64,000 nucleotides of DNA from Lachnospiraceae bacterium. Lineage in GTDB: Bacteria > Bacillota > Clostridia > Lachnospirales > Lachnospiraceae. The notes below the pieces were generated by a model. It worked only from the letters and a program-made list of their open reading frames with translations, made no database searches and was not told the DNA's origin. This document shows, one piece after another, positions 16,098-61,720 of this stretch. Location: positions 2,915-66,914 of the forward strand of contig JAZNRC010000023.1 in NCBI GenBank assembly GCA_045590555.1, in the 5' to 3' direction. Position numbers and translations under genes: made by a program. How positions within the stretch are numbered: position 1 is the first letter of the stretch; each line of letters opens with the position of its first letter.

Positions 16098-16231
16098 AAA
16101 AGCAATATATCAATTCTTCGCGGGGACGCTCTCGCTTGGTTGTCCCACGTAGCGGCACCTAGGGTTGCAAAATACGCAACCCAAATGCCGACGGGTACAA
16201 ACACCCCTTAAAGAAATGATATATTGCTTTT
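16098..16231 (+). repeat. Long-hairpin dispersed element, copy E1 (ACGCTCTCGCT family)
   Basis: 15-bp outer IR AAAAGCAATATATCA/TGATATATTGCTTTT enclosing nested stems; shares a 25-nt and a 19-nt exact block with 18094-18233 (reverse strand). Confidence 0.85.
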
Positions 16232-18093: not shown

Positions 18094-18233
18094 GCCGTGA
18101 GAAGAATATATATTGCTTTAAGGGGTGTTTGTACTCGCCGGTATTTAGGCTGTGTTTTTTACAGCCTTATATACCGCTGCGTAGGACAACCAAGCGAGAG
18201 CGTCCCCGTAAGCATATATATCCTTCTCACGGC
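18094..18233 (-). repeat. Long-hairpin dispersed element, copy E2
   Basis: Outer IR GCCGTGAGAAG/CTTCTCACGGC; AGCGAGAGCGT at 18193-18203; co-linear with E1 with compensatory changes. Confidence 0.85.
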
Positions 18234-55000: not shown

Positions 55001-55072
55001 TGCTCCCAGCAGGAATCGAACCTGCAACTAGCCCTTAGGAGGGGCTTGTTATATCCATTTAACTATGGAAGC
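55001..55072 (-). tRNA. tRNA-Arg (anticodon CCT), CCA not encoded
   Basis: GCTTCCA/TGGGAGC acceptor stem, AGCCC-CTCCTAA-GGGCT anticodon arm, GGTTCGATTCC T-arm. Confidence 0.95.
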
Positions 55073-56386: not shown

Positions 56387-57280
56387 CTACACATCCGGAT
56401 AATTCACATATCCCTGCATCCAAATCACACCTTTAAAACGTCTGCCCACCGCCGGCTCTCCGTATAAATCCTCCTTGTTGATACATACATCAAAGAGCAA
56501 ATCATTAGCAGATACCGTCATAATGTAACATTCTTCTCCGGTAAAAGAATTCCGAATTTGGCGGCAATCTTTTATTTCACCCAGCACGGAATACTGGTCA
56601 CACTCCACACCATAGGGCATAAAAAATGTATCCACCAGAGAGTAAATATCCTCGGTATAAATTCGCTTAGAAATATTCGAGTACATGTCCATATCATCAA
56701 GCGTCAGTGTTTCAATAGCTTCCTCATCACCCTGTCTTGCCTTGGTAAGCAAGGCATTTCTCTTGGTGATGACCTTTCGCACCTTCGCCTCATCTTCTTG
56801 ATGTTTCTCGATAGGCATCATAATTCTGCCCTGACAGGAAAGTGCACTCAACGAAAGCGTATATGGCGTACCATAAAAACGACCGCTGTTCTTTAATTTT
56901 AAACTTGTAATCATATTTTGAAGAAAAAAGATTAAAATCACTCCGACTTTTACGTCATCGCATACGCCAGCATAAGATTCCTTCTCTGCGTGTCGCTCAA
57001 TCGTGATTTCTTCCACGGAACTGATTACCTTAGACCTTAAATACGGAAAATAGTATCTGGCGCCGGAGTTCTCCAAATCCTCAAAGTCTTCGAACTCACC
57101 CCGGACACAAATTCCGATATCGTCGGCAAAATCCTTACAATATTCGCCCAACATACTTTTATCGTCCGTAGAAATATAATTTTTTTCATCTGCCTCGGAA
57201 ATGACTCCTTTCAGAAGCTCTTCCATCTCTTTATAGGTTTTATATTTGCTAAAACCGATAGCGCGCAAGTATTTGTGCAA
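56387..57280 (-). CDS. DUF3881 family protein
   Basis: MHKYLRAIGFS start, YGVECDQYSVLGEI, GEPAVGRRFKG..WMQG; TTG after AGAGGTG. Confidence 0.82.
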   Translation of the reverse strand: MHKYLRAIGFSKYKTYKEMEELLKGVISEADEKNYISTDDKSMLGEYCKDFADDIGICVRGEFEDFEDLENSGARYYFPYLRSKVISSVEEITIERHAEKESYAGVCDDVKVGVILIFFLQNMITSLKLKNSGRFYGTPYTLSLSALSCQGRIMMPIEKHQEDEAKVRKVITKRNALLTKARQGDEEAIETLTLDDMDMYSNISKRIYTEDIYSLVDTFFMPYGVECDQYSVLGEIKDCRQIRNSFTGEECYIMTVSANDLLFDVCINKEDLYGEPAVGRRFKGVIWMQGYVNYPDV

Positions 57281-57399
57281 GAATTTCACCTCTTTTCTGA
57301 TACATTTATAACTTATCTTTTTTATCAAAAAGAAGATATCACATCTTAAATAACTCTCTATTAAAAATTTTATCTATAAAAAACATAATTTCTTACAAA

Positions 57400-57552
57400 G
57401 ACAGGAGTAGGTTTTATATATTTCCTTAAGAACCTTATGAACTGCGTCGGCGCTTAACGAATGCAGACATAGTCTGTATGAGTTTAGCATCCGCTACGTT
57501 GTTCATAGAGCGAGAGCGTGTTCGCAAGGAATTATATAAAACCTACTCCGTC
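57400..57552 (-). repeat. Long-hairpin dispersed element, copy E3 (diverged)
   Basis: Outer IR GGAGTAGGTTTTATATA/TATATAAAACCTACTCC; AGCGAGAGCGT at 57509-57519, CCGCTACGT at 57491-57499, CGTCGGC at 57445-57451. Confidence 0.82.
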
Positions 57553-57564
57553 CCATTATAAAAA

Positions 57565-58842
57565 TTATCTAATTTCGCTCTTTCCACCCATATAAGGTCT
57601 CAATGCCTCAGGAATACGAACGGAACCGTCTTCCTGATAGTTATTCTCCAAGAATGCAATAAGTGCACGGGGTGTAGCCAATACAGTATTGTTTAAGGTA
57701 TGCACATAGTAAGTACCGTTTTCACCCTTGGTACGAATTTTCAAACGTCTTGCCTGCGCATCACCTAAAGTTGAGCAAGAACCAACCTCAAAATATTTCT
57801 GCTGTCTGGGGCTCCATGCTTCCACGTCGCAGGATTTTACTTTTAAGTCAGCTAAGTCACCGCTACAGCATTCCAAAGTACGAACGGGAATGTCTAAACT
57901 GCGGAAAAATTCTACCGAGTACTGCCACATCTTGTTGTACCAATCCATGGAATCTTCGGGTTTACATAAAACTACCATTTCCTGCTTTTCAAACTGATGC
58001 ACACGATATACACCACGCTCTTCCATACCATGAGCGCCTACTTCCTTACGGAAACAGGGTGAGTATGAGGTCATGGCAATGGGTAACTGGCTTTCTTCCA
58101 CGATTTCGCCCTGGAATTTGCCAATCATGGAGTGCTCGGAAGTACCGATTAAGAATAAGTCTTCACCCTCAATTTTATACATCATTGCTTCCATTTCCGC
58201 AAAACTCATAACGCCGTTTACCACGTCACTACGAATCATAAAAGGCGGAATGCAATAGGTAAATCCTTTATCAATCATAAAATCTCTGGCATAGCTAATC
58301 ATAGCTGAGTGAATTCTTGCAGCATCGCCCATTAAGTAGTAGAAACCTTCACCACTGGTTCTTCCTGCAGCCTTCTTGTCCAAACCATTCATACTATTAA
58401 TAATATCTGCATGGAAAGGAACTTCGTATTCCGGAACAACGGGATCGCCGTACTTCTGGATTTCAACATTTTCGGAGTCATCCTTACCGATGGGAACACT
58501 TTCATCAATGATATTAGGAATTACCATCATGATTTTGGTAGTTTTTTCTTCCAGCTCTTTCTGCTTTGCTTCAAGCTCTGTTAAACGCTGTGCACCTTCG
58601 GCAACCTGCTTTTTTACTTCTTCAGCTTCTTCTTTTTTACCCTGAGCCATTAACGCACCGATTTGCTTCGCAATTTTATTTTTATTTGCTTTGATATCAT
58701 CAACTTCCTGCTGTGTTTTTCTTCTTTCAGCATCAAGTTCAATTACCTCATCCACCAATGCAATCTTCTCATCCTGGAATTTCTTTCGGATATTCTCTTT
58801 TACCAATTCCGGATTTTCTCTCAAAAACTTAATATCAATCAT
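57565..58842 (-). CDS. serS: Serine--tRNA ligase
   Basis: MIDIKFLRENPE, LIGTSEH, CFRKEVGAHG, GVYRVHQFEKQE, VHTLNNT. Confidence 0.97.
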   Translation of the reverse strand: MIDIKFLRENPELVKENIRKKFQDEKIALVDEVIELDAERRKTQQEVDDIKANKNKIAKQIGALMAQGKKEEAEEVKKQVAEGAQRLTELEAKQKELEEKTTKIMMVIPNIIDESVPIGKDDSENVEIQKYGDPVVPEYEVPFHADIINSMNGLDKKAAGRTSGEGFYYLMGDAARIHSAMISYARDFMIDKGFTYCIPPFMIRSDVVNGVMSFAEMEAMMYKIEGEDLFLIGTSEHSMIGKFQGEIVEESQLPIAMTSYSPCFRKEVGAHGMEERGVYRVHQFEKQEMVVLCKPEDSMDWYNKMWQYSVEFFRSLDIPVRTLECCSGDLADLKVKSCDVEAWSPRQQKYFEVGSCSTLGDAQARRLKIRTKGENGTYYVHTLNNTVLATPRALIAFLENNYQEDGSVRIPEALRPYMGGKSEIR

Positions 58843-58958
58843 GACTTCCTCCATTTTAGGCTCTTGCCTTATTTTATTATTATCTTCTTTGCTGTTTTTA
58901 TTTTATAAAAAACAATTTAGCAATATATTTTTGAAAAGGTCTAAAAGAATTTCAAAAC

Positions 58959-61556: not shown

Positions 61557-61638
61557 AAGGGGTATAAATATTAAATATGGAATGTTTCACGATATTTAGT
61601 AAAATGTTTCACATTTTTTAGACTATATATTGATAAAA

Positions 61639-61654
61639 TGTTTCACGTGAAACA
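61639..61654. other. parS site 1
   Basis: TGTTTCACGTGAAACA, perfect match to the Firmicute parS consensus, upstream of parAB. Confidence 0.93.
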
Positions 61655-61689
61655 TAATATCTTGTGTTTGTAGGAAATAGCATGTTTAA

Positions 61690-61705
61690 TGTTTCACGTG
61701 AAACA
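61690..61705. other. parS site 2 (within a 32-bp perfect palindrome)
   Basis: ATGTTTAATGTTTCACGTGAAACATTAAACAT at 61682-61713. Confidence 0.93.
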
Positions 61706-61720
61706 TTAAACATATCATTA

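Follow-up and report, generated by a model that had tools for sequence, protein, structure and literature searches.

We analysed a 64,000-nt stretch of DNA from a Lachnospiraceae bacterium (contig JAZNRC010000023.1; the whole stretch is called the window here) and, within it, a hairpin-forming element termed E3 that occupies the 3' flank of serS, the seryl-tRNA ligase gene. E3 is a genuine member of the same hairpin family as two other elements of the window, E1 and E2, and this family is an undescribed, many-copy structured repeat of gut Lachnospiraceae. As far as alignments of orthologous loci show, purifying selection constrains E3 to about the same degree as codon positions 1 and 2, and the element is probably of use to the cell and not mere junk. 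The reading that we favour, tentatively and with a little less than even confidence, is that E3 is a vertically inherited dispersed hairpin repeat resembling a REPIN (a doublet of repetitive extragenic palindromic, REP, sequences), with a centre that would be read by a factor, and that it may have been co-opted as the 3'-end hairpin of serS. The elements and genes concerned are listed below.

57400-57554, minus strand: E3 element, 155 nt, beginning 10-15 nt 3' of the serS stop
57565-58842, minus strand: serS, seryl-tRNA ligase, 425 aa (Pfam PF00587 and PF02403; the 425-aa form is the one on record)
56387-57280, minus strand: DUF3881 gene, downstream of E3 (Pfam PF12997; gene calls in orthologous loci)
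16120-16209, plus strand: E1 core, type A tip, 76.0 bits with model R1
18120-18209, minus strand: E2 core, type A tip, 83.3 bits with model R1

Two covariance models were used, R1, which covers an 89-position core and was built from 10 copies outside the window with a hand-drawn structure (scan filters off), and R2, which was built from E1 and E2 only. With R1, E2 and E1 reached 83.3 and 76.0 bits and E3 43.1 bits (E 1.3e-8), the next best match in the window scoring 13.7 bits (E 0.65). With R2 the corresponding scores were 114.5, 111.4 and 29.9 bits (E 7.5e-5 for E3) over a background of at most 13.5 bits, which bears out the original prediction that E3 belongs with E1 and E2. Many undoubted members score 40-55 bits with R1, which finds 135 matches across the loci, and E3 carries all of the family hallmarks: the ACGCUCUCGCU bulge 5' of P3, the CGY-AG-CGG/CCG-RCG helix, and the UAA/UAA loop. 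The window holds three copies only. The shared 11-nt and 9-nt words are not common ones: the 11-mer occurs three times in the window, always within E1-E3, against 0.31 expected, the 9-mer occurs twice, both times within elements, and 125 of the 142 occurrences of the 11-mer in ~1 Mb of fetched loci lie inside model matches.

A scan of public genomes with the pattern ACGCTCTCGCT-N(4-20)-ACGYAGCGG matched at least 119 loci, about six of which are chance matches in high-G+C coding DNA, leaving at least 113 real copies, in Lachnospiraceae assemblies; carriers among the matches listed include Oribacterium, Blautia, Eisenbergiella, Acetatifactor, Robinsoniella, [Clostridium] symbiosum and Roseburia. 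In Rfam 15 no family came near its gathering threshold for E3, the top match (E up to 10) being a plastid 3'-UTR (untranslated region) hairpin, which scores 14.8 bits where its gathering score is 65.6, and there was nothing for E1 and E2; a literature search found no description of the hairpin family. A phage origin was considered and rejected, as the element is absent from 2.9 million viral contigs, and the 12 IMG/VR contigs that match the motif pattern all do so by chance in coding DNA, none being matched by the model.

On the minus strand E3 forms a rod-like hairpin of 146 nt that spans 57549 to 57404. The folding energy is -66.5 kcal/mol for the sense strand (z = -8.6; none of 200 shuffles reached it) and -72.7 kcal/mol for the antisense strand (z = -10.4). 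All of the strings quoted for E3 in the original prediction (GAAC/GTTC, TATGAAC/GTTCATA, the tip, the 11-mer, the 9-mer, GCCGACG and CTTAA) were found on this strand, CTTAA at 57426-57430, and the perfect 17-bp outer stem was confirmed, although this stem starts 15 nt, and not 13 nt, from the serS stop (TAA, 57567-57565), with the conserved GGGACG foot at 10 nt. From 5' to 3', the parts are as follows.

57549-57554, minus strand: 5' foot GGGACG, starting 10 nt past the serS stop (sequence)
57533-57549, minus strand: 5' arm of outer stem P1, GGAGTAGGTTTTATATA, 17 nt, perfect (sequence and fold)
57520-57532, minus strand: inner P1 ATTCCTT, GC internal loop and P2 5' strand GAAC (57520-57523) (sequence and fold)
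57509-57519, minus strand: unpaired 11-mer bulge ACGCTCTCGCT (RNA form ACGCUCUCGCU) (sequence)
57501-57507, minus strand: P3 5' strand TATGAAC (fold and covariance model)
57491-57499, minus strand: P4 5' strand ACGTAGCGG, that is A-CGU-AG-CGG with a 2-nt AG bulge (fold and covariation)
57452-57490, minus strand: P4 extension AUGC/GCG, UAA/UAA internal loop, AAC/GUU, CUC...UCG mismatch box and tip, type B (fold)
57445-57451, minus strand: P4 3' strand GCCGACG, that is G-CCG-ACG (fold and covariation)
57421-57442, minus strand: P3 3' strand GTTCATA (57436-57442), AG, P2 3' strand GTTC (57430-57433), UU bulge and inner P1 AAGGAAA (sequence and fold)
57400-57420, minus strand: 3' arm of outer stem P1, TATATAAAACCTACTCC (57404-57420), and tail UGUC (sequence and fold)

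At the foot, GACGG pairs with CC-U-GUC (57400-57405) with one U bulged, and the inner stem pairs ATTCCTT with AAGGAAAT, which has one additional A. The UAA/UAA loop sets 57484-57486 against 57454-57456, and the tip hairpin ATACAGAC-TAT-GTCTGCAT (RNA form ATACAGAC-UAU-GUCUGCAU) lies at 57461-57479. The tail motif CUGU(N)U is recurrent in the hairpin family. The element is built in three layers: a long outer stem that differs from locus to locus, a covarying middle (P2, P3 and the tip), and a near-invariant, asymmetric centre made up of the ACGCUCUCGCU bulge, the CGY-AG-CGG/CCG-RCG helix and the UAA/UAA internal loop.

Covariation was computed on a model-guided alignment of 115 matches; this alignment is fitted to the structure, which biases the absolute numbers in its favour and affects the slid controls in equal measure. 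Standard pairs filled 89.8% of the cells, compared with 63.6% in column shuffles and 33-44% when the partner was slid by 1-3 columns; two-sided changes were seen in 27 of the 30 core base pairs, and the covariation score was 0.552 against 0.153 in shuffles. At the Y/R pair of ACGYAGCGG/CCGRCG, 76 copies have C-G and 32 have U-A, and changes on one side only do not occur. E2 shows CGC/GCG at this P4 pair, like 76 other copies, and copies from impala gut carry AGCAG...UGCUG (CGG/CCG replaced by CAG/CUG) or, in a single case, AUGU...ACA (CGU/ACG replaced by UGU/ACA). Because of these compensatory variants, ACGTAGCGG and GCCGACG are to be read as the two strands of one AG-bulged helix. The original prediction had counted these two words, like the 11-mer, among its four fixed loops; this holds for the 11-mer, which is unpaired and near-invariant, but not for the other two, which pair with each other and covary. 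A pairing of UCGCU in the 11-mer with AGCGG in the 9-mer was also tried and rejected, since the CAG/CUG variants keep P4 yet would break it.

The near-invariant unpaired parts are thus the 11-mer, the AG bulge and the UAA/UAA loop. Each position of the 11-mer is 93-100% conserved over 106 copies, most of which were found via that word, and the conservation of the unpaired motifs is partly a matter of construction because two of those words located most copies; copies found by the model only carry mild variants of the 11-mer region, such as GCGCUCUCGCU and ACGCUUUCGCU. In accordance with the original prediction, the family is old and does not stem from a recent duplication, and its stems covary across all of it.

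The family contains two main kinds of tip: type A, a plain hairpin with an AAAAUAC-like loop, is that of E1 and E2, and type B, of the form xCUC-(hairpin)-UCGx, is found in E3 and 49 other copies. The nearest relatives of E3 over the core are the copies at two loci, L058 (81% identity) and L060 (76%), which match it in the inner stem and P2 (ATTCC....GAAC / GTTCTT..GGAAT), in ACGTAGCGG, and in CUAAACUC...UCGUUAAG. Over 8 kb, all that these two loci have in common is the element, 153-159 nt long and 79% identical between them. The assembly that holds L060 also contains L135, whose organism is closely related to that of the window (SerS 98% identical). A pattern specific to the subfamily led to five additional copies in one impala-gut assembly, each on a separate contig, and ATTCC....GAAC is also present in L153-L158. 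The replacement of GGGG/CCCC by GAAC/GTTC is therefore a subfamily trait, because copies in other genomes have GAAC/GTTC as well, and the view of E3 as highly diverged, with a near-complete stem turnover of its own, had to be given up. Judged from these copies, E3 is an ordinary member of a recurrent ruminant-gut subfamily whose stem is GAAC/GTTC and whose tip has the form CUC-hairpin-UCG. The subfamily also has an outer layer of its own, GTCCCAATTCG.TGTTTGTG.

In order to follow the copy at serS, SerS homologues were found, their contigs (metagenome contigs) were fetched, and the spacers between serS and the DUF3881 gene were compared. The gene order ParB, DUF4446, serS, DUF3881, DUF6709 is kept in all compared loci, which carry L numbers below.

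Window: spacer 284 nt, E3 intact
L126-L133 (serS ~92% nucleotide identity to the window): spacer 279-281 nt, E3 intact
L120-L124 (serS 99.4-99.8% for L120 and L121): spacer 126 nt, 158-bp deletion, GGGACG and the 5' arm left
L137 (serS 87%): spacer 191 nt, core deleted, both P1 arms, P2' and tail kept
L159 (serS 87.5%): spacer 219 nt, 5' half of the core deleted
L125, L134, L136, L135 and L162 (serS 87-92% for L125, L135 and L162): spacer 81-208 nt (excluding L134 and L136), unrelated, with a plain hairpin AGGGGCTTA...TAAGCCCCT and ACTACTTTTGTAA
L138, L139 and L160 (serS 86-88% for L138 and L160): spacer 55-57 nt, near-perfect small palindrome GGCTAGGGG(ATAT/GCAT)CCCCTAGCC
L161 (serS 85%): spacer 90 nt, a different hairpin
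L140 (serS 83%): spacer 20 nt, no hairpin

The presence or absence of the element after serS, which the original prediction proposed as a check, is thus mixed: E3 is intact in the window and in L126-L133, the intact allele occurring without internal change in four independent metagenome samples, but it is partly deleted in three lineages, and relatives further away show different hairpins at the site or no hairpin. E3 has accordingly been eroded by three different internal deletions and is not universal at the serS site. The junction of the 158-bp deletion bears a 4-nt TATA microhomology, and L121 lacks E3 although its DUF3881 gene is 100% identical to that of the window. The allele of L120 was considered as an empty site and rejected, as the more distant L126, L137 and L159 carry E3 or its remains; judging from this distribution, E3 was present before lineages with 8-13% divergence in serS separated. 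We also rejected the spacer of the L125 type as a homologue of the E3 spacer: the 3' arm and tail of its AGGGGCTTA-loop-TAAGCCCCT plus ACTACTTTTGTAA allele resemble those of the E3 outer stem, and there is no convincing homology beyond this.

At this single locus, the window was aligned to L126 and L127 across serS, the spacer and the DUF3881 gene. E3 differs at 2 of 155 sites (1.3%), whereas third codon positions diverge by 21.8-22.5% in serS and 23.5-23.8% in the DUF3881 gene, codon positions 1 and 2 by 0.7% and 2.5-2.7%, respectively, and the rest of the spacer (aligned columns) by 6-9%. The difference between E3 and third positions is significant by Fisher test at p = 3e-13, and that between E3 and the rest of the spacer at p = 0.005 (L126) and 0.04 (L127). 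One of the two changes falls on the first base of the foot (57554) and the other (57451) turns a G.U pair of the window into A-U in the clade-B orthologues; the P1 5' arm is unchanged in L126-L133, L137 and L159. Differences resume 3-10 nt beyond E3 on either side. The parts of E3 retained in L137 and L159 differ by 5.4% and 4.7%, compared with 34-46% at third positions, so that the divergence of E3 rises with distance while staying 8-17 times below the synonymous-like rate. This scaling argues for vertical descent under purifying selection rather than recent transfer. That one orthologous copy is conserved cannot be put down to selection among transposing copies, and the constraint should therefore act at the level of the host or on a property of the locus. 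In favour of the original prediction, these figures place E3 itself under strong constraint, and the orthologue constraint, which is new, indicates that at least the E3 copy is not neutral.

These data bear most directly on the proposal that E3 is purely selfish or decaying palindromic DNA, akin to a miniature inverted-repeat transposable element (MITE), and conserved only by recent exchange or re-insertion. Such an origin would agree with the many copies, a good number of them at contig ends, with non-orthologous copies that have only the element in common, and with the three independent internal deletions and alternative spacer alleles at the serS site. We nevertheless regard it as improbable, as the rise of divergence with distance (1.3% at 22% third-position divergence, ~5% at 34-46%) makes recent transfer unlikely, differences begin within 3-10 nt on either side of E3, and around the copies examined neither a terminal inverted repeat with target duplication nor a transposase was found.

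E1, E2 and E3 all lie directly 3' of a gene on its sense strand, but this is not a rule of the family. With genes called crudely as the longest non-overlapping open reading frames (ORFs), copies between tandem genes were 26 sense and 26 antisense (33 and 27 with a looser ORF threshold), 12 copies (looser threshold, 18) lay between convergent genes and 13 (looser, 15) between divergent ones. The family is without preferred orientation to transcription, and the strand-specific reading of an RNA that follows genes does not hold family-wide. It is unlikely, in our estimate, that E3 is a dedicated cis-acting 3'-UTR RNA whose bulge and helix are bound by a protein or RNase that sets serS mRNA stability or DUF3881 read-through, with the other copies as a regulon. 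The position of the three window copies, the strong covariation around invariant unpaired motifs, the constraint on orthologues including the G.U to A-U change, and a slight excess of G.U over A.C in sense copies (41:22) would all be expected of such an RNA; the equal numbers of sense and antisense copies and the 13 copies between divergent genes would not, as antisense copies would show complementary loops. The lack of an Rfam family match and the deletion of E3 in near-identical strains also speak against it.

Random orientation, the restriction of the element to intergenic positions, and asymmetric invariant motifs that are available on either DNA strand would suit another explanation, in which E3 is a chromosomal site acting as DNA, with an extruded hairpin or cruciform bound by a topology, replication or segregation factor irrespective of direction. 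Two further regularities fit with it. All eight pairs of copies less than 500 nt apart (at L041, L053, L022, L066, L095, L063, L099 and L032) are arranged plus then minus, with tails facing and 11-mers distal, which suggests a DNA-level rule, and the motif GGACG lies strictly on the 5' side: of 117 copies, 35 (E2 and E3 among them) have it 28-34 nt upstream of the core and 1 has it downstream. If most genes follow replication, however, a strict replication polarity would predict a bias between sense and antisense copies, and no such bias was seen; we consider this explanation decidedly unlikely.

The paired copies are a minority, most copies being single, and sequences between the members of a pair are not conserved; the genes that lie between paired copies are housekeeping genes. 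E1 and E2, which are 1.9 kb apart with tails facing, flank an operon for an extracytoplasmic-function (ECF) sigma factor and a DUF4179 anti-sigma factor. When 1,499 ORFs around 119 copies were clustered all-against-all, no adjacent protein family recurred beyond response regulators, AraC regulators, ABC ATPases and similar.

The extent of similarity between copies varies. In some pairs of paralogues the similarity stops at the core (~90% identical cores with unrelated outer stems), in others it stops 15-60 nt outside the core, by subfamily, and some copies are central in palindromes of more than 230 nt. From these comparisons the elements look like nested palindrome layers.

The closest known kinds are the REP/REPIN sequences and the intergenic hairpin repeats of the ERIC/Correia/bcr1 type, from which the family differs in size, in its internal invariant motifs and in the depth of its covariation. 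REP sequences, bacterial interspersed mosaic elements (BIMEs) and REPINs of Proteobacteria are mobilised by RAYT (REP-associated tyrosine transposase), a Y1 HUH enzyme; REPs at gene 3' ends stabilise mRNA or bind host proteins, and the BIMEs of E. coli are bound by gyrase and integration host factor (IHF). Like these, the family is non-coding, intergenic, hairpin-forming and many-copy, is long-lived with pairing kept as sequence drifts, has a conserved asymmetric 5' motif and inverted doublets of fixed polarity, and is often found at gene 3' ends. Unlike them, its unit measures 90-260 nt, compared with 20-40 nt per REP, the invariant 11-nt bulge and bulged helix are placed mid-rod in place of a GTAG head, no RAYT-like gene lies near any copy examined, and the hosts are Firmicutes.

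Imperfect intergenic palindromes of 100-200 nt are also typical of ERIC, Correia (NEMIS), bcr1, RUP, BOX, SPRITE and MITEs, which as a group (ERIC, Correia and others) are often co-transcribed, vary between strains, and have terminator-like or RNA-processing effects. Copies of those elements are alike through recent descent, whereas copies of the present family within one genome differ in their stems, by compensatory changes, while the unpaired motifs stay fixed, and no terminal inverted repeat with target duplication was seen. The logic of integron attC sites is similar (presumed recognition of a folded strand, conservation confined to spots, extrahelical bases and a variable paired centre), but there is no integrase context, copies are dispersed rather than arrayed, and the orientation to the adjacent gene is not fixed. 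The one-sided GGACG would fit the IS200/IS605 (PATE-like) group; against this, only 30% of the copies carry the motif, their orientation to genes is unbiased, and no TnpA turned up around them. With Rho-independent terminators E3 shares its place directly after a stop codon, and it differs from them by an AT-rich stem of ~60 bp with internal loops and without a U tract.

The favoured reading, a REPIN-like repeat co-opted at the 3' end of serS, might work as follows. A putative trans-acting factor, conserved across the lineage, would read the invariant centre on a folded single strand, and since orientation to genes is random, the strand recognised would more likely be DNA than RNA; like the original prediction, we infer that the unpaired motifs are recognised by such a factor, which could account for both the spread and the persistence of the family. 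E3 sits exactly where relatives carry the serS terminator hairpin, the hairpins of those relatives being simple ones with a T-rich tail, and E3 may itself be the 3'-end structure of serS, serving as a transcript stop, as 3'-end protection, or as insulation from the DUF3881 promoter. Its core is dispensable in the short term, because several lineages have deleted it.

Several observations weigh against this reading. Third codon positions, on which the estimate of constraint depends, are an imperfect neutral yardstick, and strains that are 99.8-100% identical in the flanking genes do without E3, so that any benefit is modest. Random orientation family-wide means that no single RNA-level role can apply to all copies. 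In ~0.86 Mb around 119 copies no recurrent transposase-like ORF, RAYT-like gene or TnpA was found as a partner enzyme, and mobility is inferred from distribution only, as no pair of filled and empty sites with clean ends and no target-site duplication was recognised, the serS locus yielding deletions but no empty site. A scan of 57150-57650 for the intrinsic-terminator consensus returned none; with its tail CCUGUCUUUGUAAG, and with neither a G+C-rich stem nor a U tract, E3 is not a canonical intrinsic terminator. The ratio of G.U to A.C (143:90 across all copies; sense, 41:22; antisense, 28:26) is a weak, aligner-biased strand test and is not decisive. The RNA-level look rested on assembled Logan contigs, which are uninformative on 3' ends: one metatranscriptome contig spans E3, and the others break inside it, as assemblers do at palindromes.

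A broader claim, which we consider doubtful, is that the family represents a new class of structured nucleic-acid module, in which a putative Lachnospiraceae-wide factor would recognise the 11-nt bulge and the AG-bulged helix and host selection would keep copies, either as a new mobile system acting on single-stranded DNA and domesticated as gene-end hairpins, or as a new and widespread signal for RNA processing or protection. Invariant unpaired motifs, deep covariation and purifying selection together offer a handle on a nucleic-acid-binding or mobilising activity, and the family bears on the way in which gene ends are built in Lachnospiraceae genomes. Lachnospiraceae are dominant gut bacteria, and the repeat is common enough to break metagenome assemblies. 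In annotation such hairpins should be masked or named, and they should not be taken for riboswitches or terminators.

Some further observations concern the outer layers and the surroundings of the elements. In one abundant subfamily (L004, L007, L011, L015, L026, L045, L063, L080, L099, L103 and L109) an outer stem of ~28 bp is hypervariable between copies and perfectly complementary within each, and the ends that frame it are conserved and asymmetric (GGGGGTTGGAT..GGACGT 5' of it, ACTGTGTATCGAAAAGCC 3' of it); this pattern suggests that one arm may be corrected against the other or synthesised on it as a template. L006, L018, L028, L097, L119, L032 and L093 are enclosed in yet another outer layer, which has terminal inverted repeats of the kind TAGGCAATTGCGAAAC...GTTTCGCAATTGCCTA. 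A 35-nt segment of a type B tip, TGCTAAGCTCGAAAATACCTCGCTAAGCACCGGCG (L022:6038-6072), had a summed contig depth of ~2,300-2,900 against ~5 in its flanks in complex samples (runs X38 and X40), a signal that includes a variant copy with the 11-mer ACGCTTACGCT in an 8.2-kb contig at a depth of ~120 and that is probably due to multi-copy DNA rather than expression.

The DUF4446-serS spacer upstream of serS also varies among close strains, with lengths of 38, 65, 116, 151, 298 and 435 nt, the window having the 116-nt form (58843-58958); the inserts in this spacer (L125-L128, locus positions ~1065-1501) are unmatched by the element model. The best non-family match of R1 in the window, at 13.7 bits, is a long AT-rich palindrome with AATGTTTCACGTGAAACATT at 61637-61719, which was also scored as repeat I18 and may be a regulator operator or another hairpin. 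The sole Rfam match in the window is a tRNA gene at 55001-55072 on the minus strand.

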